The notes: generated from the letters alone by a model not told the origin. A stretch of DNA of 64,000 nt from Candidatus Thalassarchaeaceae archaeon (GCA_045568075.1 JBJLBP010000001.1:377232-441231); one strand, 5' to 3'. Numbered from the stretch's first letter, positions 20,116-35,565 are shown. Made by a program: numbers and translations.

Positions 20116-20385
20116 GTGCGGCAGCCTTCGATGGTCGAGAGCGAAGTCAGTGCGATTCGAGACTTACCGGTCATTCTGCCGGACGGTCGCCTGCTCGGAA
20201 CCGTCCACGACACGGTTATCGAAACCGACTCTTGGCGCTGCACTCACATCTTCGTTGCCGACCCTCCAGCCGACCTAGTTGAAGGCCGAGTTCACGTAGC
20301 AATCCCATGGAATTGGGTGAGGTCAGTAGGCGATGTCATCGTCCTTCGATGGTTTCCCCCAACACCAATTCCGAAGGACGAATGA
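20116..20385 (+). CDS. PRC-barrel domain protein.
   Basis: About 85 aa with the LxGxxVxDxxGxxIGxVxD-like PRC-barrel pattern (LPDGRLLGTVHDTVIETDSWRCTHIFV). Confidence 0.5.
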   Translation: MRQPSMVESEVSAIRDLPVILPDGRLLGTVHDTVIETDSWRCTHIFVADPPADLVEGRVHVAIPWNWVRSVGDVIVLRWFPPTPIPKDE

Positions 20386-20470
20386 TTCAGGTATTCTTCT
20401 CACTTCATCGTGAGATTCAACCGAACGTGATTGCGATACGATTCAAAAGGTAGGGGTGAACCCATACTCG

Positions 20471-23053
20471 ATGCGTCGCATATCCGCCGTGATGATGGTC
20501 CTCGTTCTCCTGACCGCGGCAGCACCAGTTATCGATGCTGCAAGCAAGGGTGTGATCTCTTGTACGCCAGCCGACTTGGAGATGCTTCCTGCTAACTGGG
20601 ATATCGACGATGGAGCCTGCGTCAGAGTTGATTTGGGCGTCCTATCTCCTGGAGATACGCTTTCCTTCGATGTCAACGCGAATACAGATGTTGACTTGCT
20701 TCTATTCTCAGCAAGCTCGATTTCCGTCTATCAAAACGAACAAAATTATCGCCATGAAACAGTTTGGCAGGGCGAGTCTGTATTCGAGTCATTTACTGGA
20801 GAAGGCACTTGGCATTGGACCACGCCCGACGATCGTGGCGATACTCGATGGTATCTCGTGCTCGACAATATGGCACACCCGCAGGATCAGGGTAATGGTG
20901 CTCAGGGTGGATCTCTGGCTAGTGTAATTCTTGACGTTGAAGAAGTCGATTCACCTGTCTTCGGCGTGGTTGACACAATCGTTCGCCTCGAAACAGGGGG
21001 TCACTCGGTACTCGCAGGTCCTTTGATGCTTGATGAAGGGACTCAAATCAATTTCTTTGCGACAACGATGGAGGGGCATCCTGACATTTTCCTCATGACT
21101 CAACCCCAACTCGATCTTTACCAGCAAGGTGGAACAGCCGCGACTCGAATCGATGAGACTGACATGTTACTGGTTTCTGACGAGCGAACCCTCGCTTGGT
21201 CGGTCACATCCGAGTACGCGGGCCAGGATCTCTTCCTCGTCGTCGACAATCGCGCAGGTCCCTCGGGTGGTGGCGCGGGTACGGGCTATGTCGCGACCAC
21301 TGTGGTGATGGATTTGGTCCCGGTTCTCAATCCCATGATTACTAATTCATCGACTCTGAGTATAGTCGATGTTGGCGCCGAGATTCTTCTCGACGCATCG
21401 GAAACACCGAATCTCTCGAATCAGATAGATCGCGAAACAGGATTCCAGTGGGATACCAACGGAGATGGATACCACGATACTGCTGGCACTTCGATCATGG
21501 TCAGTTGGGACGAGCCGACGCAGATCAGTGTCGGCCTACGCGTCGTCTCCGAGGATGGCCGAAGCGCCAGTATCTATTTCGACATATCAGTCGAGGATAT
21601 TTCGCCACCGAGCGTCAGTCTTTCAGCCACCGATACGATACGCAAGGATTTCGATGACCAACTTTTGTTGACCGCTTCAATCGAGGATAATTGGGGCATT
21701 CAAACAGTCGAATGGCTTGTCGATGACGAGGTCATCGATTACTACAGTAATTGGGATTGGCAAGATGGAAAGACATTCACATTCCGCTTCGATTCATCCT
21801 ACGAACCCGGCGACCACGAGGTTAAGCTGAGGGTGACTGATAAGGAGAGTCAGATTACTGAAAAGATTGCAATCATCGATCTTTATGATTCGACTCCACC
21901 GATTGTGCCTGAACAGACGGTGGAGATGACAGTGATTTTGGGAGAACCATATCAATTCAACGCTGAGGCTATGGATGCTGAATCTCCGAATATGCAATTC
22001 TACTGGGACTTTGATGCCGAGACGGATAGCGACGACGACGGTATTACCGACAATGATGTAGACGCGAGCGGTGCAAAGGTCATCCAAGACTTCCAGATTA
22101 GAGGCACTATCCAAGTGATTTGCACAGTTGTAAATGATGCTGGAGTTTCAACGCAAGTCACTTACTACGTGACTGTGCGCTCTCTTGCTGACGACGACTC
22201 CGGAATCACTCCAATGGTCATTGCTCTGTTGGCTGTAATTCTGGTTCTACTCTTAGTCGGTGGTGTTGGCATGATATCGTGGCGCAGAATGTCAAACGCG
22301 CGCCTAGAAGCGCTACTCGCCGAGCAGGCCGAAGCCGAGGAAGAAGAACCTCGCGAACTCTCCGTAGAGGAGCAGAAAGCGATGTTCGGTGCTGGTTCTG
22401 TAACAATGGATCAACCCGCTTCGATGTCGACGACATCTCCGTTTGGACAGTATGGCACGGGGATGTCGGGTGCCAGTGACCCACAGGCGACTATCGGCTC
22501 GGATGTGGCGATGGGTGATTCTGACCTTGAGGCTCTGATGAACACACCCGGTCCGATTACCGCAGACGCACCATCCAGCCCGGCCGCGGACTTACTCGCT
22601 GAATTTGGCGAGGATGATTCGGTTGGCCGAGATGAAATAGTCGAATTTTCACATGATGACGGCGCTGGCACCAGCGATGATATTTGGTCACCAGAAGGTG
22701 TTGTTGGAGATGAGATGGCAGACGCTTTGCCGGCTCCTCCTCCTCCTGCCCAAGAGCCGGATGCAAATTCACTACTCGATGATGACCTCCCGACCCCTCC
22801 TCCGCCGGTCAGCGAGGATTTACCATCTCCACCAGCACCAGAAGAGGTCGAATCCGATGTGGAAGACGTAGTGGAAGACGTAGAAGATTCAGAAGATCTG
22901 CAAGAATCTGAAGAATCCGAGCCCGAATCCCGACTTGTGCAACAGGATTGTAGCCAGTGTGAGCAGCGATTCGAAGTCACACTTCCAGAGGGTCATGATG
23001 TTGCTAGGACAGCTTGCCCATCCTGCGGCGCAATTGAGACAGTGAGCCTCTGA
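20471..23053 (+). CDS. Large type-I membrane surface protein A: signal peptide, Ig-like beta ectodomains, TM helix, ~260-aa acidic/Pro-rich disordered cytoplasmic linker and a C-terminal CxxC-x18-CxxC zinc ribbon.
   Basis: Signal MRRISAVMMVLVLLTAAAPVIDA; the start is taken at ATG 20471 because of an SD-like element at 20449-20460; TM ITPMVIALLAVILVLLLVGGVGMI; tail PPPPAQEPD...VEDVVEDVEDSEDLQESEESE; ends CSQCEQRFEVTLPEGHDVARTACPSCGAIETVSL. The ORF track starts at GTG 20456. Confidence 0.6.
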   Translation: MRRISAVMMVLVLLTAAAPVIDAASKGVISCTPADLEMLPANWDIDDGACVRVDLGVLSPGDTLSFDVNANTDVDLLLFSASSISVYQNEQNYRHETVWQGESVFESFTGEGTWHWTTPDDRGDTRWYLVLDNMAHPQDQGNGAQGGSLASVILDVEEVDSPVFGVVDTIVRLETGGHSVLAGPLMLDEGTQINFFATTMEGHPDIFLMTQPQLDLYQQGGTAATRIDETDMLLVSDERTLAWSVTSEYAGQDLFLVVDNRAGPSGGGAGTGYVATTVVMDLVPVLNPMITNSSTLSIVDVGAEILLDASETPNLSNQIDRETGFQWDTNGDGYHDTAGTSIMVSWDEPTQISVGLRVVSEDGRSASIYFDISVEDISPPSVSLSATDTIRKDFDDQLLLTASIEDNWGIQTVEWLVDDEVIDYYSNWDWQDGKTFTFRFDSSYEPGDHEVKLRVTDKESQITEKIAIIDLYDSTPPIVPEQTVEMTVILGEPYQFNAEAMDAESPNMQFYWDFDAETDSDDDGITDNDVDASGAKVIQDFQIRGTIQVICTVVNDAGVSTQVTYYVTVRSLADDDSGITPMVIALLAVILVLLLVGGVGMISWRRMSNARLEALLAEQAEAEEEEPRELSVEEQKAMFGAGSVTMDQPASMSTTSPFGQYGTGMSGASDPQATIGSDVAMGDSDLEALMNTPGPITADAPSSPAADLLAEFGEDDSVGRDEIVEFSHDDGAGTSDDIWSPEGVVGDEMADALPAPPPPAQEPDANSLLDDDLPTPPPPVSEDLPSPPAPEEVESDVEDVVEDVEDSEDLQESEESEPESRLVQQDCSQCEQRFEVTLPEGHDVARTACPSCGAIETVSL

Positions 23054-23141
23054 TTCATTTGAATTGAAGTCGTCCCTCGTCGAGTTCCCGGAACATGGCA
23101 AGACGACGCATCAACTACACCTGCCGCCCAAGACCCTAAAT

Positions 23142-23160
23142 CGCACCTCATAGAGGTGCG
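23142..23160 (+). promoter_or_regulatory. 5'-UTR hairpin CGCACCTC-ATA-GAGGTGCG immediately before the giant-protein start; the 3' arm is the SD (GAGGTG, 5 nt from the ATG) and the 5' arm is an anti-SD mimic (CACCTC).
   Basis: An 8-bp perfect inverted repeat read from the sequence; the ATG is at 23164. Confidence 0.4.
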
Positions 23161-23163
23161 CTC

Positions 23164-26100
23164 ATGGAACACGGTTCAGTGCGCTTAATCAGCAAAGCGC
23201 CGCGAGCCCGAATTTCACTACCAATTCTGATTGTAGCACTATTTCTTCTTCCAACTCTCGCCCCTTTCGCTGCCGTCAGTGGAGAGGCGAGAATCGAATC
23301 TGAGGACTTCGCAATTCTCAATGAGCTCAGCGAAGTCCTCGACCAACGCGAGCAGGTGGTCAGCAGCGATACTGTGAGCAAACTTGCTGGACCTTTACTC
23401 GATCAAGTTCGGGTCGGTGTACAGGAGACTTCAGTCGCCGATCCACTCCATGATATCGACGAGGCTCTCGACGAGGTATCAATGGTCGAAACCGCTGCAC
23501 CACAAGTCATTCATCCCGAACCTTACATCATTCTGACTGACGAAAATAGCCGCCCTCCTGGCGAAGTCAGAACCATTTGGTCGACTCTTTTCAATCTCAC
23601 AGATTACGTCATTTGGACACGATATGTAGACGATGAGGGTAATGTCGTCGAGCAATCTGAGACCATAACCTTCCTCACATCTCTCCTATCTCTTTTCGAC
23701 TCTGAGACCGAATTTTTGCTTCATCAGGTCGACATCGACCAGGATGGTGATGACGACATTCAGGTTGGTCTCAGCATCGAGATCAGTGACCCCGAACTCG
23801 ATGGAACCACACTTTCAGTCGCGCCTCAACTCGATTACAAGATCAGTGTGCTGCCCTCAAGCATGACTGATTCCGATTGGGAAAATCTAGAAACTCTAGA
23901 AGTGAGTCTTCTCAAAGCATTCGCGTATTCCGATGGAATCCTTACCGAGGGTGAATCATACGTTTGGGTTATTGATTCAAAATTCACTCATACACCTTAC
24001 GATTTCACCCTCGGAGTTGGTCTCGAACGATTCTACTTCGATCTCTCAGAAGCGGGGGCCGATTTCCTCCTATCGATTTTCAATGCGCTATCCTTCGGCG
24101 TGTTCAACGGTGGTGATGAATCTGGAATTACAATCGCTTCAATCGCCGCTCCATACCAGATATCAATAGACAATTCCGGCCAGACCGAATGTCCAGATCG
24201 CTACTCGCCGATTGAACTCACAACTCTTCCATCCAGTCAAATCTCCTGTGGAGTCACAGCAGGCTTCGGTTACGTCCACTATTCTCCTCCAAATATCGAA
24301 GATGAACGAGATGTCTGGGAGGTGGCCTACATTGAAGCCGCAATTCACCCTAATCGTCTCTCCACCACCCTCCCTGAACAGCTTGATCTCACAATCCGAA
24401 CTGATAGCACGATGGCCGACGGCACGGGCAGTGCTGGTGAAAATGGCCTGACAACCGTCGAGTACTGGGCCGATGAGCGCGCAGACCTCCACATACACTT
24501 CCACGAGAACCGCTCAGAGGTTCCACCCGAGAATGCCGATGGAACTTATGGTAACTCAACCGACTCCATCGGCTGGCTGCGCGGAATGCCTGCAGGCAGC
24601 CTCACCACAGAGGAGATCGATCGCACTTTCACCATGCTCGGTTCAAAGTCCGAGCCTCAACTACCTGGTGGCCAACCGAATCAACTCGGCCTCATCATCG
24701 GTGTCAAGAATTTCACCCGCGATACATCGCAGAACGTCGACGACCCCTCTCTCCCAGTCAATCCAGCATACCCGCCAAAGACTCTCGTTCTGGTAAGGTC
24801 AGTCCAATCGCTTGAGGAGGTGGATTATCATTCTTGGATGAAACGTGGTGGCGCGGCCACCGACCATCGGCGGATCGAAATTACTGCTCAAGACTTACCG
24901 ACCGCCGTCGTGCTCTTTGGCTCATTTGAGTTAGGTGGGACTGAAGAGGCAGACACAAGTCTCGATTCGGCACAAAATCTTGATTTCATGTCGAGAATCT
25001 TCGATGTTGTCCTGATCAACATAGTCGACCTCTTCCTCGATATCGGCACTATTCTGAACGACATTCCATCTGCCACAGTCGACGTCATCAGCGGTGGAGT
25101 CGGCGGTTCGGGTGGCCTAACAGGACAGACTCTTCACCTATTGATGAATGATCATTGGAGAGCCGATCGACAGGCTAGGTCAATCTCAGAAATCGGCCTG
25201 CAGATCGGTTCAAGCTCGCATCCTACGATGCCTGGCGATCATCTGATCCTCGCAAAAGACAGACAGTTGGAGACAGTTCAAGGGCGTCAGGGTCCGGTGG
25301 TGCCGATGGTGGTAGTAGCTGCGAGTTTACGTTTCAGTGGTCTGAGCCAGTTCACTCTTATCGATGATCTCGAGTCGGAATCCCAACAGGTTTCACTCCT
25401 GACTTCGTCGGAAAAACAGTTCTCATTCCTTTACATCGATCACAAACCGAATGATCTCAGCGGCGCAGCCCATCAAGGCGTCCGAATATCCGATATTCCG
25501 GACAATCTCTCCGCCGAACTCACACCCCAACTCGCAACATACCAAGCTAGTTCCTCTATCGATAGTATCAGTTACACTGGTATTGATGGTGACCAACGGC
25601 AGGCGACTCACGTTCTCGATTTGCCTGCCGAGTTTGAGATTGAATTTGGCGATGTGACTACTTGGAGCGCTTCATCGCCGATTTCTTCCATTCATGCCCA
25701 ACTCACAGATTCTACAAATCCTGTGACGATGGGCGGCGATCACTTCCTTTTCCATCACGAGCCGTCCGATGGTAGCTCGACTATCTCAACTCGTATTTCG
25801 GGATTGCAAGAGGTTGGCTGGCGAGCACCAGCCGAACCAGGTGCCAGTGGAGCAATTGGTCGTGGCACCGCTTTCATGACCGCTGCCGGCGACCGCACGA
25901 TGAGCATCAATGTCGATCATGCGCCGACTCAGGATGAGGGGGGCTTGTCGGCGCTCGTTCTCATCGATCCACTTCCATCCACTATCTCGGTCGATATTCC
26001 AACGGGAGCCGATGCAGGAAACAGCCTCGTCTTCCCCGAATTGAACACGACTCAAGGTGTCGCTGGCGTGGCTTTCTTCCTTGGCGGTTTTGCCGATCTC

Positions 26101-27531
26101 GGTCGCTCTGTGAACACGGTCCTCGCTGGTGTGACAAGTGAAATTTCGACAGGATCCGATGGTGGCAATGGTTCATTCTCTTACGGTCTTCAGCTCGATG
26201 CAGACAGTAATTTTGACCTGATTTTCGAAGCCAGCCATGGAAATGGCACTGCGGATGCCCCACCTTGGGTACACGGAATCGCGCTGAACGCAGCACCTTC
26301 AGGAATATCGGATGGCTTCCATATCCGTGGATGGATTCCAGATTTACCTCCGATAATCGATATCTCGGTCAGTCGAACCCCGACTTCAACCGGTGAAGAA
26401 TGGGCAATCGCCATGGGTTTGGATGGATGGTTGCCCGCGCGCAGTGAATTCATGCTGAACTCGCGCGGTATCAACGGTCAGGACCTGATGATGACACTGC
26501 AAGGCTTGACCGTTGGTGAATCAACTGCACTAGGACTCGATTCGGAATTCTTGATCCGAGAAACAAGTGGTGGGATTACCGAAGTAACAACAACGACTCA
26601 CTTCGTGATGTCGAATAGACTCGATTGGATTCATGCTCTTCTAATCAATCGAGAGGCCGGCGCACGGACGGAGATGCTGATCAATGACATTCCCGAATCC
26701 ATCGATTTGCGCGCCAGTCTAGGCACGTCCATATCGCTGGATATGACCGTGCCAGATGCATATCGTCGAGCCGGTCCTGCCGTGGACTCGATGATGATGC
26801 AACAGATGCAATGGATGGACGGTTCTTGGTGGCCGGCTACGATTTTCCTGACCGACGTCCCTGACGCGATTAATCTCACGACAGAGCCAGATCTCGATTT
26901 TGACATCACCAAAAGTCTCGCATTCCAAGGGACTCCTGTACTCGACTTCTCCGCCTCGGCTGATGGAATGTCACTCTACATCGAAGCCAACGGCCGCGCT
27001 ATCAACAGTCGAGGCGAAATCATCCTCCTCGCCGAGGGCATGACCGATCGAATGGTCATCAAACCGACTGAGGATTATGGTCTCGCGATTCGCAGTGGAG
27101 GCGATGGAGTCGATCGAATCTATTTGCGCGCCTCCAATATGCCGACAACTCCTCCTGTTGTCCTCGAAGAAATGGAGGCGCTTGGCGAGAATTTGCGAAG
27201 CGCGACGATTCATGTCATTGAGATAGTCGGCCCATACAGCGTCATTGAGATAGAAGATGTACAAGGTGGACGAATCGTTGCATCCGCGCGCGCGACGGCT
27301 GAAGTCGAAGCCATTGGTATGACCTTTGATTTGCGTGGCGTTCTACTCGACGCTCAGACCACCGGAGGAGTACCGACTGGAACCAGTCTTGGGGTAAACG
27401 GTCTCGCTTCCGATCTCTCGCTGCTGAATCTAATCCCTGGATTTGAAGGCTCCACCCATCACATAATTGTCCCGGAGCCTCTCTCATCCGGTGTGCTAAC
27501 ATTCTGCGCTACATTCCTGGGAGGTGACTAA
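23164..27531 (+). CDS. Giant (1455 aa) secreted or N-terminally anchored surface protein B with no recognisable domain.
   Basis: N-terminal signal/anchor LPILIVALFLLPTLAPFAAVSG; an uninterrupted 4.4-kb ORF with coding-like codon usage; Asp/Thr/Ser-rich beta-type composition; TAA stop at 27529-27531. Confidence 0.6.
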   Translation: MEHGSVRLISKAPRARISLPILIVALFLLPTLAPFAAVSGEARIESEDFAILNELSEVLDQREQVVSSDTVSKLAGPLLDQVRVGVQETSVADPLHDIDEALDEVSMVETAAPQVIHPEPYIILTDENSRPPGEVRTIWSTLFNLTDYVIWTRYVDDEGNVVEQSETITFLTSLLSLFDSETEFLLHQVDIDQDGDDDIQVGLSIEISDPELDGTTLSVAPQLDYKISVLPSSMTDSDWENLETLEVSLLKAFAYSDGILTEGESYVWVIDSKFTHTPYDFTLGVGLERFYFDLSEAGADFLLSIFNALSFGVFNGGDESGITIASIAAPYQISIDNSGQTECPDRYSPIELTTLPSSQISCGVTAGFGYVHYSPPNIEDERDVWEVAYIEAAIHPNRLSTTLPEQLDLTIRTDSTMADGTGSAGENGLTTVEYWADERADLHIHFHENRSEVPPENADGTYGNSTDSIGWLRGMPAGSLTTEEIDRTFTMLGSKSEPQLPGGQPNQLGLIIGVKNFTRDTSQNVDDPSLPVNPAYPPKTLVLVRSVQSLEEVDYHSWMKRGGAATDHRRIEITAQDLPTAVVLFGSFELGGTEEADTSLDSAQNLDFMSRIFDVVLINIVDLFLDIGTILNDIPSATVDVISGGVGGSGGLTGQTLHLLMNDHWRADRQARSISEIGLQIGSSSHPTMPGDHLILAKDRQLETVQGRQGPVVPMVVVAASLRFSGLSQFTLIDDLESESQQVSLLTSSEKQFSFLYIDHKPNDLSGAAHQGVRISDIPDNLSAELTPQLATYQASSSIDSISYTGIDGDQRQATHVLDLPAEFEIEFGDVTTWSASSPISSIHAQLTDSTNPVTMGGDHFLFHHEPSDGSSTISTRISGLQEVGWRAPAEPGASGAIGRGTAFMTAAGDRTMSINVDHAPTQDEGGLSALVLIDPLPSTISVDIPTGADAGNSLVFPELNTTQGVAGVAFFLGGFADLGRSVNTVLAGVTSEISTGSDGGNGSFSYGLQLDADSNFDLIFEASHGNGTADAPPWVHGIALNAAPSGISDGFHIRGWIPDLPPIIDISVSRTPTSTGEEWAIAMGLDGWLPARSEFMLNSRGINGQDLMMTLQGLTVGESTALGLDSEFLIRETSGGITEVTTTTHFVMSNRLDWIHALLINREAGARTEMLINDIPESIDLRASLGTSISLDMTVPDAYRRAGPAVDSMMMQQMQWMDGSWWPATIFLTDVPDAINLTTEPDLDFDITKSLAFQGTPVLDFSASADGMSLYIEANGRAINSRGEIILLAEGMTDRMVIKPTEDYGLAIRSGGDGVDRIYLRASNMPTTPPVVLEEMEALGENLRSATIHVIEIVGPYSVIEIEDVQGGRIVASARATAEVEAIGMTFDLRGVLLDAQTTGGVPTGTSLGVNGLASDLSLLNLIPGFEGSTHHIIVPEPLSSGVLTFCATFLGGD

Positions 27532-27532
27532 T

Positions 27533-28102
27533 ATGGGCTTGTTAGAGAAGATGCGCAATGCCGAGGAAGAGACTCGAGAGGATATAGACGAGGCCACTGA
27601 GCGCGCTCACGAAATTCTGCAAATCGTTGGCGAGCGTGTCGAGCAAGTTCGACCGAGTCGAGTGATATTCGCCTCGGTCGCCGTTCTGTTGATTGTCAGC
27701 GGGATGTTCATCATTGGAACTTGGTTAGTCCCATACGACCGGACGAGCGTAGATGTGGTATACATTCAAGGGGGCTCTGGTCACGTTGTTTTGGTCGAAT
27801 TAGACAACAAAGGATCTCGCTCGATAACCGACGTTAATCTTGACATTCGATTCCTCGATGATGCAAGTCTCGAAATCGGTAGATCTAACTTCCAAGCTGG
27901 TGAAATCGCCGCCCATACTTCGATTGCTGGAGACGACTTGGAATTGCTCATCGCCGGCGCTTCAGTCTGGGAGAATTACACGATTGAAATCATTCTCGAT
28001 TACACATATGGAGGCGATGATTATCACGAACGCTGGACCTACAATGTCGGTGGGTGGCAGATGGAGATGTTCACTTACAATGCCCCGATTCACTTCTTCT
28101 GA
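27533..28102 (+). CDS. Bitopic membrane protein C: charged helical N-terminus, one TM helix, ~120-aa ectodomain; translationally coupled to protein B.
   Basis: GGAGGTGA (27520-27527) lies 5 nt before ATG 27533 and overlaps the last codons of B; TM VIFASVAVLLIVSGMFIIGTWLV. Confidence 0.5.
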   Translation: MGLLEKMRNAEEETREDIDEATERAHEILQIVGERVEQVRPSRVIFASVAVLLIVSGMFIIGTWLVPYDRTSVDVVYIQGGSGHVVLVELDNKGSRSITDVNLDIRFLDDASLEIGRSNFQAGEIAAHTSIAGDDLELLIAGASVWENYTIEIILDYTYGGDDYHERWTYNVGGWQMEMFTYNAPIHFF

Positions 28103-28119
28103 CACGACCTACGGTCGTG
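28103..28119 (+). terminator. Intercistronic hairpin CACGACC-TAC-GGTCGTG directly after the stop of gene C; one of the CC-UAY-GG tip family.
   Basis: A 7-bp perfect stem with a 3-nt loop, read from the sequence; there is no downstream T-tract, so its function (terminator, processing or stability element) is open. Confidence 0.3.
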
Positions 28120-28144
28120 ATTCAAGACCATCCATCCAACCCGA

Positions 28145-31100
28145 ATGCTGAAAGGCGACTCAATGGGGCAGCGACTCATGACCAAACGCATCGCGGTTGC
28201 GATACTCGGGATTTTCCTCCTATCTCTCGCTCCGGCTGGTGGGGTTCATGTTGAGTCAACTGGGGATTCGGAGGAAATACTGGACCCAGTTGTGAATCGT
28301 ATTGGGATTGCACCTGATCCAGATTCAATCCAAGATCTTGGTTCACCACGAGTCCTTGAGGGTCTCGAGAGGACTCGTGAGAATACGGCCGACTCTACAA
28401 TCGGCGTTTACACCGAACTCGGCCTCATTCCATCGGTTCACTTGCCACGAGCTCTAGCTGAGCCTCGAAGCGACTTGGCGATGGTTATCGTCGATGGAGA
28501 TGTTGGCATCTGGGATGCTCGTATTGCTGTCGAGGAAGCGGCTGATGTTGAGATTCGCTCGACAATTCCTCCATCGGGATTCCTCGTGCAGGGTGATGAA
28601 AAGCAGATTTCATTGCTCGCTGAGGAATCGATAGTAGTCGCAGTCCACTCTGTCTCGTCCGGCCTGCTCGCCCATCCGCTTCTGCGGCTGGTCGAAGAAG
28701 GCCCGATGATGGTCGAGTTGCTCGGCTGGAAGGATGACGAATTACAACGCCACGCCGAGCCAGGCCTCGGTCTGGAAGATTCGTTAGAAGCAGTTGCAGA
28801 ACTTTGGTTGACCGATTCATGGAGCCCAGAAGAGGGGCGTGTATGGGGCGTCGTTGATATCTCCGATATCGGCAGTGTCCTACAGCACCCCTCAGTCGCT
28901 TGGGTTGCGCCGCTACCGGTGCTAGAAACCAAAAATGACAATGCCCGAACCCACATGGGAATCGATACGGTCGACTCCTTCTTCGTCACTGATCTAGATG
29001 GCTCCGGCCAAACTGTTGCCGTCGGCGATTCGGGCATTGACCATGATCATGGGGATTTCAACAACCGAATCGTCGGTCGAACTTCTGTCACCCCTGGAGA
29101 TTCCTCGACCGCTGATCCATCGGATGGTCACGGAACCCACGTGGCTTGCACAGTGCTGGGTTCCGGAATGCGCAGCAGCGGGACTTACAACGGCGTCGCT
29201 CCCGGTGCTAGCCTCTACTTCCAAGCAATGGAGGATGATGACACAGGTGCTCTCTACAGTTACGGCATTAACAGCATGTTGAATTCTGCTTACAATGCTG
29301 GTGCCCGCCTGCACACCAATAGCTGGGGAGCGGGCAGTGGACACGGATCATATTCGACCCAGTCCGAGGATGCGGACGACCGCACCTCGACTTGGGATCA
29401 ATACTGGAGTCACGAGGGTATGACTGTGCTCTTCGCGGCTGGCAACGAGCGTAATGACGGAGTTTCACCACCTGGTACTGCGAAGAATGTCATCACAGTT
29501 GGTGGCCACAAGAATCGCTACAGTGGCTCTCCTGACGAGATGTATTACTGGAGTAGCCGCGGTCCAACTGACGATGGCCGTCTCAAGCCCGACCTTGTAG
29601 GACCGGGAGACGGTGTTCGATCTTGCCTCGCTCAAGAGGCTCAGGATGCAGATTCAGGATGGTCAAACAACTGGTACATCGAGTACAGCGGCACTTCCAT
29701 GTCGACTCCAGCCGCTGCCGGAGCCGCCGCCCTCGTGCGCGAGTATCTGATGGAAGTGGCAAATCGACCGGCTCCACAGGGTGCTTTGGTCAAGGCACTC
29801 CTGATTCTTGGCGCCGAGGACATGGGAAATCGTAACATTCCGAATAATGACGAGGGCTGGGGAAGAGTCAATCTGATTAATTCACTCATCCCCGATAGCG
29901 ACGAAGGTATCTTCGTCGATGATCGTAGTAGAATTCGAAGTGGCGAGACCCAAGAATACACCTTCGAAATCACTCGCGCTGGTGAGCCTCTGAAGGTGGT
30001 CCTCGCTTGGTCGGACTATCCTGGTTCATCATCTTCAAGCAATCAATTACGTAACGATTTGAATCTTGAAGTGATTCATCCGAGCGGTGGAACTACCTAC
30101 AAAGGAAATGTCTTCAATTCAGGGCGTTCAATCGCTGGTGGCTCCTTCGATTCAAAGAATAATGTCGAGGTTGTTCTAGTCGATAATGCCGCTGTCGGGA
30201 CATGGACTGTCCGTGTCAAGGACGATTATCACGGCGGCAGCCGCACCTGGCAGCCATTCGCTCTCGCGGTTCGTGGAGTGAACGTCAACGATCTCTCACC
30301 AGACCCAACTTTTGCTCCTGATGTATCGGTTACTCCAACCATTCCTCAGATTGGAGACTCGGTTCAGATTGGAATCACTCTCGAGAATCTAGGAGCAGGA
30401 TCTGTCTCAGATCTCGAAGTAATGGCGCGTGCAGATGGGTCTCACATCTCGACCCAAACCATCTCTATGACTCCGGGTGAATCGGTCGGAATGACTTGGA
30501 ATTGGACACCGACAAGCGAGGGACTGATAGATCTGTCATTCCACATTGATCCAAACGAACTTGTCGACGAATCCAACGAAGGAAATAACCTACTCACACA
30601 CACAGTAATCATCAGTGCACCCGGAGTTCGAGTGACTTCGGATGAACCATTCATGACTCTTGGGGAGGCTGACGACAGCTCAACCACTTGGTCACTTACT
30701 CTGACGAATACCGCCCTCTTCGAGACCAATGCAACAATCGAAGCCTCCTCTCCTATTCGACAGAGCGATGGCCTCGAATTCGATTGGTTCTACTCTTTCA
30801 CATCGAATACGTTCAACCTGCTGGAAGCGGAATCTGTTGAGATTGGATTCACTCTGATCCATCCAGCTCCTCCGCAGCCTGGAACCTATGTCATGACGAT
30901 TACAGGAACTGATGTCGAGAATGAGATTGAATCGATGCTCGACATCTACTTCGAGGTGCCCATTCTTGCAGCCGCCGATGTTGAAATCACATCAGGCCAA
31001 GTCCAAGTCAGTCCAATTTCTAAGACTCAAATTCAGGTCTTCGTAACCAATGTGGGCAATGGCCCTCAGACCTACGATGTCGAACTCAGCTCTCCTGCGG

Positions 31101-32665
31101 GCTGGCACCTCGGCCTCGACGTGCTCGGAGCCTTCGCAGGTTCCTCACACGGCTCGACTGGAACTCTCTTCGTCGGCGAGCGCCGGACAATTGACATCAC
31201 GGTGAATCCACCCGGCGCGATGATCCCAGCCGGCTCGGTATTCGACGCCGGCTTGACGATCCATTCTCGCGTCAGTAGTGATTCTTGGTCGGTACCGATT
31301 CCTCTCGAGGTCATCATCATCGACCAACTTTCGACCACACCAATCAGTGATGGCATTGAGCACGAAGTCTCGCCCGATTCGACTCTCGTGCTCGATATCG
31401 ATTTCCTCAACAACGGTAATCGAGACCTGACGATGACCCCGTATTCGCGAGGTATCCCATCGGGTTGGACTGTAGTAGGAGGTCTTGACACACTCTTCGC
31501 ACCTACCGGCTCAACGACTAGTTGGTCGGTGACTCTGCAAGGCAATGGCAGGGCGACCAGCGGCGACTTCAAGCTCCGCTTCGCCACTGATGACGGCTTC
31601 GCTATCGACTGGAACAGAACCATCGATGTCCTCTCAGCCGCGATACCCGCTCTGACTTTCCACCAAGTCGTTCTTGGCGACGGCACATCTGCTGACACAC
31701 CACTAGGAGTCGGAGCCCATCCCGTCGGAACAGGCTTCGATTTGGCTTGGGAGGTCGAGAATGAAGGTACCTCAACTTGGAAGCCGACCACGAGTATCAT
31801 CATCCCTGAAGGTGATTGGTTGGGGACTTGCCCAACTACACCATCCTCTCTCGCTCCCGGCGCGAGTAGCATCATTTGGTGCACCGTGACGATTCCACTA
31901 TCGGCTGAGGCCGGGAGTGAACCATACGTCACTCTCAGGATGGAAGGCGAAGGTATCGAGATCGAGAATTCGATCTCGCTACGCGTAGACTCTGTCTCCG
32001 CGGTGACTTGGAATCTGCGAACCCAAGCCCAGGCACACGAGGGCTACCCTATCCAGATGACTGTGGATATTCAGAACGTTGGTAATGCGCAAGTGAATCA
32101 TCGCTTAGATGTCACAGCACCATCTGGCTGGAACGTCTTCATCAATGACGAGGTCCTAGTCATTCTGAGTCCCGGCGAATCACGTTCGATCGTCATTGAA
32201 TTCACCCCCAATGCTGGCAGCGATGGAATCATCGAGATGTCACTTCGCTATGGCGAGGACATTCAGGGGTCCACCTTCTCCTTCGATGTCGATGTGATGC
32301 CCGGTAAGGGCGGTGATAGCAGCCTTGGTTCAACACTCATTCCAATCTTCTTCATCCTCATTATCGCAATCATCGGTGGGGCCGGATTCTATGTCTTCAA
32401 GCAGCGCGGAGGCAAACTCGATTCCATCATCTCAAAAGAGGCTGTGAGCAAGATTTCCGAGTCGCTGAAACTTAGTGAAGAAGAGAGCGGATCTGGTATC
32501 GAATGTTGGGTTTGTAGTCGTGATATATTCGAGGGTAAAGCTCACGCTTGTGGCAATTGTGGAGCCCGCTATCACCAAGCCGGACAGATTCGAGGATGCG
32601 ATATCCTCTCCGTTGGCCGCTGTTTGCACTGTAACGCAGATTCGAGCGAGCTCGTCGAGGCTTGA
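28145..32665 (+). CDS. Membrane-anchored S8 subtilisin-like serine protease D (1506 aa) with many CARDB-like beta-sandwich repeats, a TM helix and a cytoplasmic C-terminal double zinc ribbon.
   Basis: Catalytic triad contexts VAVGDSGIDHDHGDF (Asp), DGHGTHVACTV (His) and GTSMSTPAAAGAAALV (Ser). At least six repeats of the (V/I)xNxGN..xxxL type. TM LIPIFFILIIAIIGGAGFYVF. Tail CWVCS-x11-CGNC...C-x7-CLHC. A signal peptide (ILGIFLLSLAPAGG) after alternative starts at 28163 or 28178. Confidence 0.8.
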   Translation: MLKGDSMGQRLMTKRIAVAILGIFLLSLAPAGGVHVESTGDSEEILDPVVNRIGIAPDPDSIQDLGSPRVLEGLERTRENTADSTIGVYTELGLIPSVHLPRALAEPRSDLAMVIVDGDVGIWDARIAVEEAADVEIRSTIPPSGFLVQGDEKQISLLAEESIVVAVHSVSSGLLAHPLLRLVEEGPMMVELLGWKDDELQRHAEPGLGLEDSLEAVAELWLTDSWSPEEGRVWGVVDISDIGSVLQHPSVAWVAPLPVLETKNDNARTHMGIDTVDSFFVTDLDGSGQTVAVGDSGIDHDHGDFNNRIVGRTSVTPGDSSTADPSDGHGTHVACTVLGSGMRSSGTYNGVAPGASLYFQAMEDDDTGALYSYGINSMLNSAYNAGARLHTNSWGAGSGHGSYSTQSEDADDRTSTWDQYWSHEGMTVLFAAGNERNDGVSPPGTAKNVITVGGHKNRYSGSPDEMYYWSSRGPTDDGRLKPDLVGPGDGVRSCLAQEAQDADSGWSNNWYIEYSGTSMSTPAAAGAAALVREYLMEVANRPAPQGALVKALLILGAEDMGNRNIPNNDEGWGRVNLINSLIPDSDEGIFVDDRSRIRSGETQEYTFEITRAGEPLKVVLAWSDYPGSSSSSNQLRNDLNLEVIHPSGGTTYKGNVFNSGRSIAGGSFDSKNNVEVVLVDNAAVGTWTVRVKDDYHGGSRTWQPFALAVRGVNVNDLSPDPTFAPDVSVTPTIPQIGDSVQIGITLENLGAGSVSDLEVMARADGSHISTQTISMTPGESVGMTWNWTPTSEGLIDLSFHIDPNELVDESNEGNNLLTHTVIISAPGVRVTSDEPFMTLGEADDSSTTWSLTLTNTALFETNATIEASSPIRQSDGLEFDWFYSFTSNTFNLLEAESVEIGFTLIHPAPPQPGTYVMTITGTDVENEIESMLDIYFEVPILAAADVEITSGQVQVSPISKTQIQVFVTNVGNGPQTYDVELSSPAGWHLGLDVLGAFAGSSHGSTGTLFVGERRTIDITVNPPGAMIPAGSVFDAGLTIHSRVSSDSWSVPIPLEVIIIDQLSTTPISDGIEHEVSPDSTLVLDIDFLNNGNRDLTMTPYSRGIPSGWTVVGGLDTLFAPTGSTTSWSVTLQGNGRATSGDFKLRFATDDGFAIDWNRTIDVLSAAIPALTFHQVVLGDGTSADTPLGVGAHPVGTGFDLAWEVENEGTSTWKPTTSIIIPEGDWLGTCPTTPSSLAPGASSIIWCTVTIPLSAEAGSEPYVTLRMEGEGIEIENSISLRVDSVSAVTWNLRTQAQAHEGYPIQMTVDIQNVGNAQVNHRLDVTAPSGWNVFINDEVLVILSPGESRSIVIEFTPNAGSDGIIEMSLRYGEDIQGSTFSFDVDVMPGKGGDSSLGSTLIPIFFILIIAIIGGAGFYVFKQRGGKLDSIISKEAVSKISESLKLSEEESGSGIECWVCSRDIFEGKAHACGNCGARYHQAGQIRGCDILSVGRCLHCNADSSELVEA

Positions 32666-32728
32666 ACCGCGACCCTACGGGCTCGCGTGGCCCGAAGCCC
32701 TTAGAGGGGCCCGATTCTCGGCAGAGCG

Positions 32729-35413
32729 ATGAATCGTGCTGCTTTGGCCCGTTTGCTGACGGTTCTGCTTCTTGTCACGATGCTCTCTCCTATGGTTCAG
32801 GCTGAGGTTGATCCACGTTTGACAGCGAGTCCGATGGCTCAGGAAGCCGACGCAGATGAACCAGCTGAGTACGATATCACCGTTCACAACGATGGCGACG
32901 ATGATATGGCCGTATCTCTGAGCACTTCGCAAGACGCATCGGATTGCAATGGATTCAGTTCCTCAATCGAACAGGTCTCGGGTACCATAGGTTCTGGTGA
33001 ATCTGAGACTGTCACACTCACAGTGACCGTTAACGATCAAGCCAATGGTGAGTGTGAGACAACTGTCCAAGCGACTGCACAAGTCGCTGATGGAGCGCCA
33101 GGTACTCCGAAGAATGCCGATATCACAGTCACCACCACCGCCGGAGACGGCGGTGGACTCTATGCAGTCAAACTCTCGACCGATGAACCGAGTGTCGATT
33201 ATGATGGAGACGACGATATCGTTTGGGAGGTCGAGGTGGAGAATACCGGTGAACAGCAGGCGAATGTCCAACTCGAGATGACTAGTGAGGATGATTGCGA
33301 GTCAGACGATCTCACAGCAACCGTCGATCCAGCGGTAGTACAGCTTGAATCCGGTGACAAGGAAACAGTCGACGTGACAGTCGAAATTCCCGACGGTAGT
33401 TCCACCGAGGCTGGTCAGCACTGTTTCCTATTGAGGGCTGAAGTCACCAACGACCCCAATCAAGCCGACCGAGCCGGAGACAATCTAACTCTCAGTCTCA
33501 ATATTCCAGAAGTCAAGGAGTGCGACGGATCTCTTTCAACCACATCTCACAGTCTCGATCCATTTGAGACAGCGGAGAATAGCTTTGAAGTCGAAAATAC
33601 GGGAAATACCGAGTGGACTGTTCAGATGCAAGCCCAATCGCCGGGAACCGACATCACGGGTTGGGTTGAGTTTGATAGCCCGAAGACAAAATTACTCGCC
33701 AAACCCGGTAATTCCGACGATAGCCACACCTTCACATTCTCAGTGACTCCTGATGATTCAGCCGAAGCCGGCTCTCAGATTGAAATCAAGATTCAAGGAC
33801 GTTCGAACCAAGGCGTCGGCTGCGAACAGATTCTCACAGTCACAATCGGTCAAGTTCATGATGCGAAATTGACCCTCAGTACATCGAAACTTTCCAATGT
33901 AGAACCGGGGAGTTCAGATTCAGTCACTTTGACGGTGGAGAATCGCGGTAATGGGCTCGATACCTTTTCTCTGACTACGATTGACCTCCCTGAAGGTTGG
34001 CAAATTTCATTCTCTCAATCTTCGGTCACCGTCAACAGTCGTCATGATTCTAACAACAAGGTTTCTCTGACCGCCACAATCAATGTCCCTGCAGATGCTC
34101 TCGCGGGCGATAACACGATTGAATTCGGCGTGACTGTTAGTGGTTCGACGACTATTCTAGCCAGCAAGGTTCTGACGGTATCGGTCGCGGCAAGGCACGA
34201 CCTGACAGCTGATATGCTCTCAACTCAGCAGACGGGTCGCTCAGGGCAGGTCGTCCAGTTCCCGATAGATATCACGAACACCGGGAATATCCGTGATACG
34301 TTCAAGCTCCAAGTCTGCGATCCGAGTGACCAGACAGGATGCAATCCTCCGATGTGGGCTGCGTCTTATTCTGACACAAATGGAAATTCAATTTCGCAGT
34401 TGATTCTTGATCCTAGCGAGTCTAAGCGAGTCTTCCTCGATGTTACCGTCGAGGGTGAGGAAGACGCGGATTCAGTCACAATTCTCTCACGCGTGGCGAT
34501 ATTTGGAACCAGCGAGAAGGTCGAGCATACGATTAGCGTGATCGTATCAAACTACGATTACGGCATGGCAATCTCGCCCGAAATGCCGGGTCCGATAGCC
34601 GGGCAGCTCGACGTTGTTCTACCACCAGGTGGAGTCACAGAAATCAATTTCTGGCTCGAGAATACAGGTAATTTCCCCGGCGGAGATAAAGCCGTCATAT
34701 CGATGGCGGGAATGGAATCATCGGTTCTGAGGAGTGTTCTGATCGATGGCGTGGTCGTCAATGATAACATCCCAGTTCCATCTGGTGATCGCGTTCTCAT
34801 TACGATTCAACTCGAGGTACTGGAAGGTGTGGGAAGTGGAACTACTGGCGTGATAAAGATCAGCGCTTCCTCCGAGAAGAATGCTGCTGAGAGCACCTCA
34901 GTTGATCTCGCCTTCGAGGTCAGGACAATCCATGATTTGCAATTCACACTCGAAGGCGAAGAGGATGCGACGACGGATGAGAAAACCAGTGTTGAGTTCA
35001 TTTTGTATGTGACTAATCATGGAAACATCGTCGAGACAGTCCAGATCCTAACAAGCGATTCTCTCCGTGGATGGACGGTCAATGTCATCCCTGACGAATT
35101 CCAACTCTCACCTGGGAACTCTCGAACCATCACAGTGAGGGTGACTCCTCCGGCGGGGATGATCCAAGATGACACCTATAGATTCACCATCACAGTCCAG
35201 CCCAAGGGCATGCCCGTAGCGGGCGAACCCCTCGATCTCGAAGTAACTGCTGAGGTCTCCCCTGGACTCAACTGGCTGAGCGAGCAGAACGAGCAGATTC
35301 TGGTTTACGGATTGACAGGCATTGGGGCTCTGCTCGTCGTCATTCTCTTCTTCCGCTCGCGCACAGAGAACCGTCGTATCATCGAGGCGCTCGAGCACGA
35401 ATCGAGCGACTGA
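32729..35413 (+). CDS. Surface protein E: signal peptide, ~8 tandem CARDB/DUF11-like repeats, C-terminal TM anchor with a short cytoplasmic tail.
   Basis: Signal MNRAALARLLTVLLLVTMLSPMVQA; repeated modules with VxVxNxGN...D.F.L motifs (VEVENTGEQQANV, FEVENTGNTEWTV, LTVENRGNGLDTF, IDITNTGNIRDTF, FWLENTGNFPGG, LYVTNHGNIVETV); TM ILVYGLTGIGALLVVILFF. Confidence 0.6.
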   Translation: MNRAALARLLTVLLLVTMLSPMVQAEVDPRLTASPMAQEADADEPAEYDITVHNDGDDDMAVSLSTSQDASDCNGFSSSIEQVSGTIGSGESETVTLTVTVNDQANGECETTVQATAQVADGAPGTPKNADITVTTTAGDGGGLYAVKLSTDEPSVDYDGDDDIVWEVEVENTGEQQANVQLEMTSEDDCESDDLTATVDPAVVQLESGDKETVDVTVEIPDGSSTEAGQHCFLLRAEVTNDPNQADRAGDNLTLSLNIPEVKECDGSLSTTSHSLDPFETAENSFEVENTGNTEWTVQMQAQSPGTDITGWVEFDSPKTKLLAKPGNSDDSHTFTFSVTPDDSAEAGSQIEIKIQGRSNQGVGCEQILTVTIGQVHDAKLTLSTSKLSNVEPGSSDSVTLTVENRGNGLDTFSLTTIDLPEGWQISFSQSSVTVNSRHDSNNKVSLTATINVPADALAGDNTIEFGVTVSGSTTILASKVLTVSVAARHDLTADMLSTQQTGRSGQVVQFPIDITNTGNIRDTFKLQVCDPSDQTGCNPPMWAASYSDTNGNSISQLILDPSESKRVFLDVTVEGEEDADSVTILSRVAIFGTSEKVEHTISVIVSNYDYGMAISPEMPGPIAGQLDVVLPPGGVTEINFWLENTGNFPGGDKAVISMAGMESSVLRSVLIDGVVVNDNIPVPSGDRVLITIQLEVLEGVGSGTTGVIKISASSEKNAAESTSVDLAFEVRTIHDLQFTLEGEEDATTDEKTSVEFILYVTNHGNIVETVQILTSDSLRGWTVNVIPDEFQLSPGNSRTITVRVTPPAGMIQDDTYRFTITVQPKGMPVAGEPLDLEVTAEVSPGLNWLSEQNEQILVYGLTGIGALLVVILFFRSRTENRRIIEALEHESSD

Positions 35414-35552: not shown

Positions 35553-35565
35553 TCAGGTGTCAGCG

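Follow-up and report, generated by a model that had tools for sequence, protein, structure and literature searches.

Two large proteins encoded directly upstream of the nuo operon in a 64,000-nucleotide stretch of a Candidatus Thalassarchaeaceae genome (the window) are each predicted to cross the membrane once and to end in a conserved cytoplasmic zinc module. These proteins, A and D, are products of a gene block whose order in the window is PRC-barrel gene, A, B, C, D, E, and then nuo. An earlier sequence-only reading had placed both tails inside the cell; the positive-inside rule predicts the same, and a Pfam search of the tails matched no known extracellular domain. We read the region as a whole as a vertically inherited, constitutive envelope gene block of Poseidoniales (Marine Group II, MGII), lying directly before nuo. 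Few archaea of the surface ocean are as abundant as the Poseidoniales, which are uncultured, and nothing on their cell envelope was found in the searchable literature. The genes and one translation signal are as follows:

16113..17258, - strand: ftsZ, archaeal FtsZ1-like (context; Pfam Tubulin and FtsZ_C)
20131..20385, + strand: PRC-barrel gene, 84 aa (Pfam PRC PF05239, 31.9 bits vs. a cut-off of 21.2)
20456..23053, + strand: gene A, 865 aa (ORF call)
23164..27531, + strand: gene B, 1455 aa (ORF call)
27520..27527, + strand: GGAGGTGA, a Shine-Dalgarno-like sequence within the 3' end of gene B, 5 nt from the start codon of C
27533..28102, + strand: gene C, 189 aa (conserved start ATG at 27533, MGLLEK)
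28145..32665, + strand: gene D, 1506 aa (ORF call)
32729..35413, + strand: gene E, 894 aa (ORF call)
35470..36012, + strand: nuoA, first gene of the nuo operon (context; 56 nt 3' of E)

The five genes A to E are all called on the + strand, as the sequence-only reading had it, and the lengths it gave for A, B, D, and E agree with the ORF calls. Its 190 aa for C becomes 189 aa from the conserved start, and its block, which began at A, gains the conserved PRC-barrel ORF directly upstream. Intergenic gaps are 110 nt (A-B), 42 nt (C-D), 63 nt (D-E), and 56 nt (E-nuoA). The genes are thus closely spaced as had been described, but the overlap proposed for B and C does not hold: C begins at a conserved ATG (27533), and its first codon hence lies 1 nt beyond the stop codon of B, with the GGAGGTGA site in place upstream. 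Intergenic hairpins also exist as reported but do not reach significance (z = -1.6 to -1.9; 12–13 of 200 shuffles fold equally well), and none precedes nuoA. Scans for promoters and terminators were uninformative, with 13 terminator-like sites vs. 12.1 expected. The GC content of the block (0.51–0.55) is that of the rest of the window, which argues that the block is native DNA. Homologues of its proteins carry the names Poseidoniales or Thalassarchaeum. An archaeal L15e and FtsZ are also encoded in the window.

Hydropathy gives signal-like N-terminal segments in A, B, D, and E and a single N-terminal anchor in C (aa 47–65), in agreement with the signal peptides or anchors previously assigned to all five proteins. 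In A, D, and E it also gives a transmembrane (TM) helix near the C-terminus, with basic residues directly after it. The topology predicted for A is that of a type I membrane protein: a signal peptide leads into an ectodomain, and the TM helix is succeeded by a linker, acidic and disordered, that ends in a C4 ribbon; an alternative start is possible at the ATG at 20471. The ectodomain, ∼560 aa, consists of a duplicated N-terminal domain and PKD/Ig-like domains. The Ig-like assignment made earlier is upheld by a Pfam PKD match just above its cut-off (27.9 bits vs. 27). The parts that follow the ectodomain are:

22220..22276, + strand: TM helix of A, aa 589–607 (Kyte-Doolittle 3.02), followed by WRRMSNAR
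22277..22948, + strand: predicted cytoplasmic linker of A, aa 608–831 (from the orthologue alignment)
22949..23026, + strand: putative C4 zinc ribbon of A, CSQC-x18-CPSC, aa 832–857, 8 aa before the C-terminus

From the TM helix to the first Cys the linker measures 224 aa, shorter than the 260 aa first proposed, and its length ranges from 132 to 244 aa among 37 orthologues. It is rich in acidic residues (26% D+E, 3% K+R) and proline (11%), has no Pfam match, and contains a conserved juxtamembrane segment, WRRMSNARLEALLAEQ...PRELSVEEQKAM, as well as several short conserved islands. The TM helix and Cys4 ribbon at the C-terminus were confirmed. All four Cys and their spacing are invariant from MGIIb to MGIIa, marking a putative zinc site; the CxxC-x18-CxxC pattern ends 8–12 aa before the C-terminus in the 37 orthologues and 10 aa before it in MGIIa. 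With a mean identity of 0.77, the ribbon is the best-conserved segment of A (0.75 for the juxtamembrane segment; 0.60–0.70 for the ectodomain). Searched alone, the tail matches Pfam Zn_ribbon_Nudix (26.9 bits, cut-off 25.6) and, below their cut-offs, Zn_ribbon_Brz (E 5.9e-4) and Zn_ribbon_8 of the FmdB type (E 2.6e-5). NCBI names A orthologues "zinc ribbon domain-containing protein".

Of type I membrane topology, D is an intact subtilase, predicted to stand at the cell surface on an Ig-like stalk that is anchored by a C-terminal TM helix. A signal peptide and an N-terminal region precede its S8 domain; then come a P-domain-like segment, some six Ig-like domains, the TM helix, and a predicted cytoplasmic zinc finger. 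The parts with assigned coordinates are:

29000..29863, + strand: S8 catalytic domain of D, aa 286–573 (PF00082, 156.8 bits, cut-off 21.8, full profile length)
30317..30598, + strand: canonical CARDB domain of D, aa 725–818 (PF07705, 74.2 bits)
32333..32389, + strand: TM helix of D, aa 1397–1415 (hydropathy), followed by KQRGGK
32504..32632, + strand: C4HC3 finger of D, C-x2-C-x11-C-x2-C-x3-H-x8-C-x7-C-x2-C, predicted to be cytoplasmic and to bind two zinc ions

The S8 call made from sequence is borne out by the profile match and by the catalytic residues, all present: D295 (DSG), H329 (HGTH), the oxyanion residue N392 (NSWG), and S518 (GTSM). Mean identity of this domain among orthologues is 91%. 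Of the at least six CARDB-like repeats that had been proposed, one passes the Pfam threshold, and the others are inferred from the h-x-h-x-N-x-G hallmark, with six occurrences in D and seven in E. These remaining repeats are sub-threshold for CARDB (19.2 bits) or are called NPCBM_assoc (a match at aa 1300–1360) or fn3_6.

The tail of D is not the Cys4 ribbon it had been taken for. Instead it holds eight ligands in a C4HC3 arrangement (C1454, C1457, C1469, C1472, H1476, C1485, C1493, and C1496), none of which varies among 20 MGIIb orthologues, and the pattern recurs in the distant representatives read; 48% of the columns of the finger are invariant. The finger is predicted to be binuclear and RING/PHD-like. 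Matches of the tail model to RING/U-box folds are weak but consistent, the spacing of ligands is atypical for RING or PHD, and the RNF126 RING is matched among PDB sequences at E 0.12. The only Pfam families that touch the tail, Prok-RING_1 (PF14446) and DZR (PF12773), are likewise small Cys-rich binuclear fingers of prokaryotes, but D scores far under their cut-offs (12.8 bits vs. 29.1 and 15.3 vs. 27.3, respectively) and forms a small family of its own. A phmmer search of 1.84 billion representatives returned only 28 matches; in all of them the finger is at or close to the C-terminus, and the longer ones that were read have Ig-like domains and a TM helix before it.

Among 43 species-level MGIIb genomes, all loci of sufficient length keep the order A-B-C-D-E, and the same order followed by nuo is found in a distant MGIIb lineage (L046) and in four MGIIa loci (L047–L050), including the adjacency of E and nuoA. 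Identities to L046 are 33% for A, 42% for B and C, 38% for D, and 39% for E (nuoB, 81%); those to MGIIa are 28% for A, 32–35% for B, 43% for C, 37% for D, and 54% for the PRC-barrel protein. What MGIIb and MGIIa have in common, down to 28–38% identity, is an overall order of PRC-(MBL)-A-B-C-D-E-nuo together with both zinc tails. The block is a core conserved envelope locus in both families sampled. Region by region, few parts of A and D are conserved as well as the tails, and sequence comparison indicates strong purifying selection on both. Because gene order and zinc tails are kept in both families, the comparison supports the earlier suggestion of an integrated system: the genes are a single conserved unit and not a set of secreted enzymes independent of each other.

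The other three proteins are also of the surface. B is a large secreted protein that has a signal peptide only and is almost all-beta. C has a conserved 45-aa cytoplasmic N-terminus, a single TM helix (N-in), and a beta-rich extracellular domain of ∼125 aa, and it matched no family in Pfam and NCBIfam searches. Judged solely by gene spacing, C would hold B on the cell. E is an array of Ig-like domains anchored in the membrane, with a signal peptide, about seven such domains, a C-terminal TM helix (aa 857–875), and a 19-aa tail; the helix is followed by RSRTENRR, and the ENRR motif is kept in L046. An array was correctly foreseen for E, but not one of about eight CARDB repeats: the CARDB profile gives 24.6 bits (cut-off 22.7), and the domains are better named NPCBM_assoc (64.4 bits) or choice-of-anchor T (112.9 bits, NCBIfam cut-off 70), with FixG_C at 56.4 bits. 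No PGF motif of the archaeosortase (PGF-CTERM) type was found in A, D, or E, and the tails of A and D are long and folded. A 273-aa neighboring protein (15207–16028, minus strand) ends in LPGF, a TM helix, and RFERKE.

Genes upstream of A bear on what its tail may contact. The stand-alone PRC-barrel gene is directly upstream of A in 42 MGIIb loci (71–98% identity), and in MGIIa an orthologue is upstream of the block with an MBL-fold gene between it and A. The ftsZ gene sits 3.2 kb upstream of A; the best PDB match of its product is M. jannaschii FtsZ homolog 1 (325 bits vs. ∼235 for bacterial FtsZ). Its adjacency to the block is kept in most MGIIb loci and lost in L046 and MGIIa. In Haloferax, the PRC-barrel proteins CdpB1-3 are components of the divisome (bioRxiv 10.1101/2023.03.28.534543). 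The PRC ORF of the window is likewise small, stand-alone, and near ftsZ, with a match at the level of the PRC-barrel family; PRC barrels also occur in unrelated roles.

The sequence-only reading held that a zinc-binding cytoplasmic tail on such ectoproteins is not a described architecture. This was partly right but too strong, given the NCBI naming of A and the existence of two comparable layouts. One is that of CdpC (HVO_0399, DUF7093), an anchor of FtsZ1 to the membrane in Haloferax volcanii and the first such anchor to be reported, only in 2026 (bioRxiv 10.64898/2026.07.16.738847). CdpC has a membrane-binding N-terminal domain made of a C3H zinc ribbon and an amphipathic helix, a 243-aa disordered linker (61–303), and a 43-aa C4 ribbon (304–346) that binds FtsZ1 (bioRxiv 10.64898/2026.07.16.738847). 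A shares with it the succession of a membrane element, a disordered linker with a conserved island (243 vs. 132–244 aa), and a C-terminal C4 ribbon of 40–43 aa. Division genes (PRC-barrel, and ftsZ in MGIIb) are found in the genomic surroundings of A. A differs in having a signal peptide, a 560-aa ectodomain, and a true TM helix and in lacking the C3H ribbon and amphipathic helix. The layout of bacterial ZipA is analogous to that of CdpC. Searches of the ribbon and linker of A against Pfam DUF7093 gave no match at E up to 10, with the qualification that HMMER filters drop most matches above E ∼0.1; the resemblance is hence one of layout rather than demonstrated homology.

The second layout is that of the eukaryotic PA-TM-RING E3 ligases, such as RNF13, RNF167/Godzilla, and GRAIL (PMC4021871, PMC8834447). 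D has the same order of signal peptide, ectodomain, single TM helix, and predicted cytoplasmic binuclear RING-type finger, but its ectodomain carries an S8 protease and Ig-like domains, no PA domain is among its Pfam matches, and the spacing of its ligands (H-x8-C, C-x7-C) is atypical. We know of no ubiquitin system in the host archaeon, which makes ligase activity unlikely; the finger is probably a RING-like module for interaction or dimerization. Among other large proteases, pyrolysin and the sortase-anchored PrtP of lactococci are cell-envelope subtilases. In Staphylothermus, the archaeal S8 protease STABLE is bound non-covalently to the tetrabrachion stalk of the S-layer (PMC5744192). Like these three, D is an S8 protease of very large size, retained at the surface by a long C-terminal extension that is itself non-catalytic, and the role proposed is feeding on peptides, processing of envelope proteins, or both. 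It differs from STABLE and PrtP in being anchored by its own TM helix, which continues into the conserved finger. To our knowledge, none of STABLE, pyrolysin, and PrtP has a cytoplasmic domain.

We suggest that the zinc modules may be docking knobs for protein-protein contacts, linking ectoproteins to partners in the cytoplasm, such that placement, retention, or turnover of the ectoproteins would be controlled from inside the cell. We consider this reading, a constitutive envelope block with docking tails, an even call. The CdpC-like layout, constant PRC-barrel companion gene, and FtsZ1-like neighbor in most MGIIb make the FtsZ-based division or cytoskeletal machinery the most likely candidate partner of A. 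Points against are the lack of a DUF7093 match, the loss of the ftsZ adjacency in L046 and MGIIa, the wide occurrence of the PRC fold in other roles, and the generic nature of C4 ribbons, which also bind nucleic acids. The ectodomains most likely serve to capture and digest proteins at the cell surface, a role that fits the accepted protein-scavenging lifestyle of MGII. In its full form the proposal has A as a transmembrane counterpart of CdpC/ZipA, whose ribbon on a ∼200-aa tether would bind the Z-ring or PRC-barrel/SepF while its ectodomain engages the surface assembly of B-C, D, and E, and the D tail as an archaeal RING-like finger that acts independently of ubiquitin. We advance this detailed form tentatively, as a reading that is rather unlikely to hold. 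If it is true, the envelope proteins of Marine Group II archaea are coupled physically, across the membrane, to the division ring, and D is the parallel in a prokaryote to the PA-TM-RING design of eukaryotes. The tail of A relates to the question of how archaeal envelope growth is coordinated with FtsZ-based division, and a RING-like finger on an archaeal surface protease, in a host with no known ubiquitin system, would bear on how transmembrane RING proteins arose before eukaryotes. The block also provides named candidates for the surface coat, the cell-bound protease of protein scavenging, and a physical link between surface and cytoplasm.

A rival reading is a cluster for surface proteolysis and adhesion that serves nutrition alone, with D digesting extracellular protein, with A, B, and E binding particles or substrate, and with the tails being folded plugs that merely stabilize the single TM anchor and have no specific partner. 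MGII are regarded as protein degraders and extracellular S8 peptidases have been reported in all MGII MAGs, genes for an M14 carboxypeptidase and an SNF transporter are near the block, and the ectodomains are acidic, Ser/Thr-rich, and made of Ig-like domains. But a plug needs neither invariant non-ligand residues nor a fixed x18 spacing nor conserved motifs in a 224-aa linker, and the tails are conserved as much as the ectodomains or more. Anchoring, moreover, does not require a zinc module, since E has just a plain TM helix and a short tail. We therefore regard a purely nutritional cluster as doubtful. Compatible with docking to the division machinery, and possible though improbable, is that the block forms an S-layer or coat, in which B and C are canopy and anchor like SlaA and SlaB, or E is a multi-Ig S-layer protein, and D is STABLE-like. 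Several observations are consistent with a coat: the genes occur universally and in synteny, and their conservation is high for surface proteins; STABLE sets a precedent for an S-layer with a bound S8 protease; and the PACE-CTERM "putative S-layer protein" model matches E, albeit below threshold (38.6 bits vs. 110). In the two-component S-layer of Sulfolobales (PMC5744192), the bicistronic slaA-slaB pair likewise places the gene of a secreted protein of ∼1400–1450 aa directly before that of its small membrane-anchored partner, as in B-C with its 1-nt gap. No similarity of B to SlaA in fold or sequence was found.

Signaling through the tails is quite improbable; it would make A a membrane-tethered sensor, with DNA, RNA, or some regulator as the target of its ribbon, and would have the D finger act in an E3-like manner for a ubiquitin-like modifier. 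The weak matches of the A ribbon are to regulatory ribbons (Zn_ribbon_Brz and Zn_ribbon_8) and those of the D finger are to RING/U-box folds, as signaling would have it. Against this, no DNA-binding domain is present, a ribbon on a long acidic tether is better suited to reaching targets in the cytoskeleton or near the membrane than to reaching DNA, the spacing of D ligands is unlike that of catalytic RINGs, and no E1, E2, or ubiquitin-like gene is among the genes examined near the block. That the genes are merely adjacent and independent, with Cys patterns arisen by chance, would accord with the non-significant hairpins and the uninformative promoter and terminator scans, but it is refuted by the comparative data and is almost certainly wrong. 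Gene order and both Cys patterns are retained across the two families at the low identities given above, and in the whole window CxxC...CxxC occurs only in A, D, and one unrelated ORF that has no TM helix.

Genes A–E (20456-35413, + strand, immediately upstream of nuo) form a cell-envelope subtilase/adhesin block with predicted cytoplasmic zinc-finger tails, in an ecologically dominant order of uncultured archaea. All five ORFs exist as first read, with refinements to the start codon of C and possibly that of A. The conserved start of C is ATG 27533 (MGLLEK), 1 nt past the B stop codon and with a Shine-Dalgarno-like GGAGGTGA 5 nt upstream, and A may start at ATG 20471 because many orthologues begin MRR. 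The block is not limited to five genes, as had been read; a PRC-barrel ORF upstream of A was missed. It is listed here with the topologies of A–E, which were predicted from hydropathy and flanking charges.

20131-20385, + strand: PRC-barrel ORF, 84 aa (Pfam 31.9 bits vs 21.2), 70 nt upstream of A
A, D, and E, + strand: predicted signal peptide, ectodomain, and single C-terminal TM helix followed by Arg/Lys
B, + strand: predicted signal peptide alone
C, + strand: predicted 45-aa cytoplasmic N-terminus, one TM helix, and ~125 aa outside

The organization of the block is conserved from MGIIb (Thalassarchaeaceae) through MGIIa (Poseidoniaceae), both of Marine Group II (MGII). A comparative scan of one genome per species located A at 43 loci, and almost all of the MAGs concerned carry the label Poseidoniales or a generic euryarchaeal one. 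Every contig of sufficient length shows the gene order L15e, PRC ORF, A, B, C, D, E; ftsZ lies divergently upstream at most of the loci. Identities at the most diverged end of this set are 42% (A), 57% (B), 45% (C), 58% (D), 70% (L15e), and 85% (FtsZ). In a distant MGIIb locus, L046, A-B-C-D-E is followed by nuoA-B-C-D-H-I (identities of 33% for A, 42% for B, 38% for D, and 81% for nuoB), and A keeps both the ribbon and the juxtamembrane motif. The order in MGIIa is PRC, an MBL-fold gene, A, B, C, D, E, and nuo, with identities of 28% (A), 32–35% (B), 43% (C), 37% (D), and 54% (PRC), and both zinc tails are present. Conservation of gene order and zinc tails thus extends beyond what the sequence-only reading could know. 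At 42 MGIIb loci the PRC-barrel ORF is present with 71–98% identity, and since it is likewise linked to the block in MGIIa, it travels with the block in both families. Adjacency to ftsZ/L15e is specific to most MGIIb genomes. The MBL-fold (Lactamase_B-like) gene is located between PRC and A in MGIIa (1601-2728 in loci L048-L050); in L046 (1-802) it immediately precedes A and overlaps the start of A. It is absent between the PRC ORF and A in the window.

Because the order is conserved across MGIIb, L046, and MGIIa, chance adjacency of the block genes is refuted, and the comparison supports the block being a functional unit. Nor is the block a foreign island. Its GC content (0.51–0.55) is the same as that of the remaining window, as is expected of native DNA, and together with vertical inheritance this rules out a foreign origin. 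The window has archaeal gene content (ribosomal protein L15e, an FtsZ, and the nuo operon), and close homologues of A are in MAGs named Candidatus Poseidoniales, Thalassarchaeaceae, or Thalassarchaeum, which correspond to MGII, family MGIIb. Intercistronic hairpins had also been noted; they are present but not statistically unusual, and with z-scores of only -1.6 to -1.9 were dropped as regulatory elements. A scan for Sigma-70 promoters and intrinsic terminators, with models ill-suited to an archaeon, gave results at chance level.

Protein A ends in CSQC-x18-CPSC, 8 residues ahead of the stop codon, and its MGIIa counterpart likewise ends in a CxxC-x18-CPSC ribbon. The preceding linker is 224 aa long with 26% Asp+Glu and 11% Pro. 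Among 37 orthologues linker length ranges between 132 and 244 aa, and the spacing and position of the ribbon are constant. Ribbon and juxtamembrane segment are the best-conserved regions of A (mean identities of 0.77 and 0.75, respectively), followed by the ectodomain (0.60–0.70). Conservation is lowest (0.34) where the linker is rich in Pro and acidic residues, and close relatives share several short invariant islands within the linker. Invariant non-ligand residues in A include RFEV, ARTA, and IETV. Pfam identifies a PKD domain in A. The N-terminal ectodomain (aa 29-290; window 20540-21325) is the best-conserved extracellular portion and has no Pfam match; it looks as if a ~125-aa domain had been duplicated in tandem, with the motifs D.DLLLF...Y...W...YLVLDN and D.FLMT...Y...W...LVVDN.

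Protein D is an S8 subtilase, as had been proposed (156.8 bits; D295, H329, N392, and S518 all present). Of the CARDB-like repeats ascribed to it, one is a canonical CARDB (74.2 bits) and the remaining Ig-like domains are sub-threshold; one NPCBM_assoc domain is above threshold. An h-x-h-x-N-x-G hallmark, spaced ~105–120 aa apart, occurs in six copies in D and seven in E, and this sequence signature indicates as many Ig-like domains in each. The tail of D had been taken for a Cys4 ribbon like that of A, but it is different in kind: it has seven invariant Cys and one invariant His, in the pattern C-x2-C-x11-C-x2-C-x3-H-x8-C-x7-C-x2-C. With eight ligands, the C4HC3 finger is predicted to have two zinc sites. 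His1467 and His1495 are not conserved.

We assign the D finger with moderate confidence as RING/PHD-like, on the basis of sub-threshold sequence hints, an AlphaFold2 (AF2) model, and structural matches. Profile matches to DZR (E 0.023) and Prok-RING_1 (E 0.12) and a sequence match to the RING of RNF126 (E 0.12) are all sub-threshold. The AF2 model, from a four-sequence alignment, has pLDDT mostly of 73–80 over the finger, and its top Foldseek matches are almost all RING domains (best E 0.036, probability 0.9). An exhaustive phmmer search with the tail yielded 28 hits among 1.84 billion representative proteins, and in every one the finger is at or near the C-terminus. In the longer hits examined, the finger comes after Ig-like domains, a TM helix, and a linker that is Pro-rich or disordered. 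Given these few hits and their constant C-terminal placement, the finger is a private feature of the D protease family.

Proteins B and C have no Pfam or NCBIfam match, and B has no match among PDB sequences. Homologues of B form 16 clusters only, all of 1398–1500 aa and none with a Pfam domain. An AF2 model of B (aa 256-1455; 16-sequence alignment, 44–63% identity) has pLDDT of 68.5 and pTM of 0.57, and consists nearly entirely of long antiparallel strands. A SlaA-like or other known S-layer fold is not supported for B, N-glycosylation sequons, whose enrichment would point to an S-layer glycoprotein, are not enriched, and a literature search for an MGII S-layer found nothing relevant. Protein E matches NCBIfam choice-of-anchor T (112.9 bits; cut-off 70). 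MGIIb E ends in a single TM helix and an ENRR tail, unlike MGIIa E, which is 1201 aa (L050 15308-18913) and has a longer, multi-segment hydrophobic C-terminal region.

From the established topology, enzyme class, zinc-ligand patterns and their conservation, and synteny, we infer that C would hold B at the membrane and that the zinc modules of A and D would dock cytoplasmic partners. The role of C is suggested by the 1-nt gene gap, the Shine-Dalgarno-like site, the extracellular beta-rich domain of C, and the lack of an anchor in B. A, C, D, and E, all of the proteins but B, have predicted cytoplasmic segments; these are conserved in MGIIb at the least, as would fit a surface assembly that is controlled from the cytoplasm. 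The earlier suggestion that the block is an integrated system reaching a putative partner in the cytoplasm is supported by synteny and conservation. Poseidoniales are not known to have a ubiquitin system, and the D finger is for this reason more likely to act in interaction or dimerization than in catalysis.

The architecture had been called undescribed, which is too strong: Haloferax volcanii CdpC (HVO_0399) matches the cytoplasmic layout of A, and eukaryotic PA-TM-RING ligases are the closest in design to D (PMC4021871, PMC8834447). A literature search on archaeal single-pass proteins that carry a zinc ribbon gave no relevant result. CdpC is a membrane anchor of FtsZ1: its N-terminal part binds the membrane, a disordered linker of 243 aa that includes a conserved island follows, and the C-terminus is a C4 ribbon of 43 aa whose Cys residues are needed for FtsZ1 binding (bioRxiv 10.64898/2026.07.16.738847, July 2026 preprint). 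In A, the anchor is instead a TM helix. PRC-barrel proteins CdpB1-3 are divisome components (bioRxiv 10.1101/2023.03.28.534543). The FtsZ encoded nearby most resembles archaeal FtsZ1. By analogy of layout and neighbourhood, the partner of A may be the divisome, which would tie the block to archaeal cell division in a concrete way that can be tested. C4 ribbons are generic, and the CdpC family (DUF7093) has no Pfam match to the A tail; the resemblance is one of design and context rather than demonstrated homology.

In the accepted view, MGII archaea scavenge protein, and every MGII MAG is reported to encode extracellular S8 peptidases; the ectodomains fit this view. Other features of the window are as follows.

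9408-13408, + strand: M14 carboxypeptidase (731 aa) abutting a sodium:neurotransmitter-symporter-family transporter (601 aa); annotation from the syntenic locus L001
15207-16028, - strand: 273-aa exported protein with a PGF-CTERM-like C-terminal signal (LPGFGLAAGLGALAMAAIGASRFERKE)
17417-17517, + strand: tRNA, 101 nt (Rfam 56.4 bits; missed by ARAGORN)
17605-19362, + strand: 585-aa TPR protein between ftsZ and L15e
38448-39986, + strand: nuoH-like protein, 512 aa, whose NADHdh domain is confined to residues 163-446
40002-40994, + strand: nuoI-like protein, 330 aa, with ferredoxin motifs only at ~121-266
62898-63842, - strand: 314-aa ORF with an internal CxxC-x17-CxxC and no predicted TM helix

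The carboxypeptidase and transporter pair fits peptide or amino-acid scavenging. The PGF-CTERM-like signal implies that archaeosortase-type anchoring exists in this genome, despite which A, D, and E are anchored by plain TM helices; archaeosortase sorting of these three is ruled out, as they have no PGF motif. The tRNA probably contains an archaeal intron. The TPR protein is found in only some MGIIb lineages (7 loci of the MGIIb comparison) and looks like a variable insertion within otherwise fixed synteny. Besides A and D, the window encodes no protein that has both a TM helix and CxxC...CxxC, and the 314-aa ORF has the sole other zinc-ribbon-like pattern. The nuoH-like and nuoI-like proteins have long extensions beyond their recognized domains, and in L046 a 198-aa EF-hand protein (21343-21939) lies between nuoJ and nuoK, with EF-hand matches also in the next nuo subunit.
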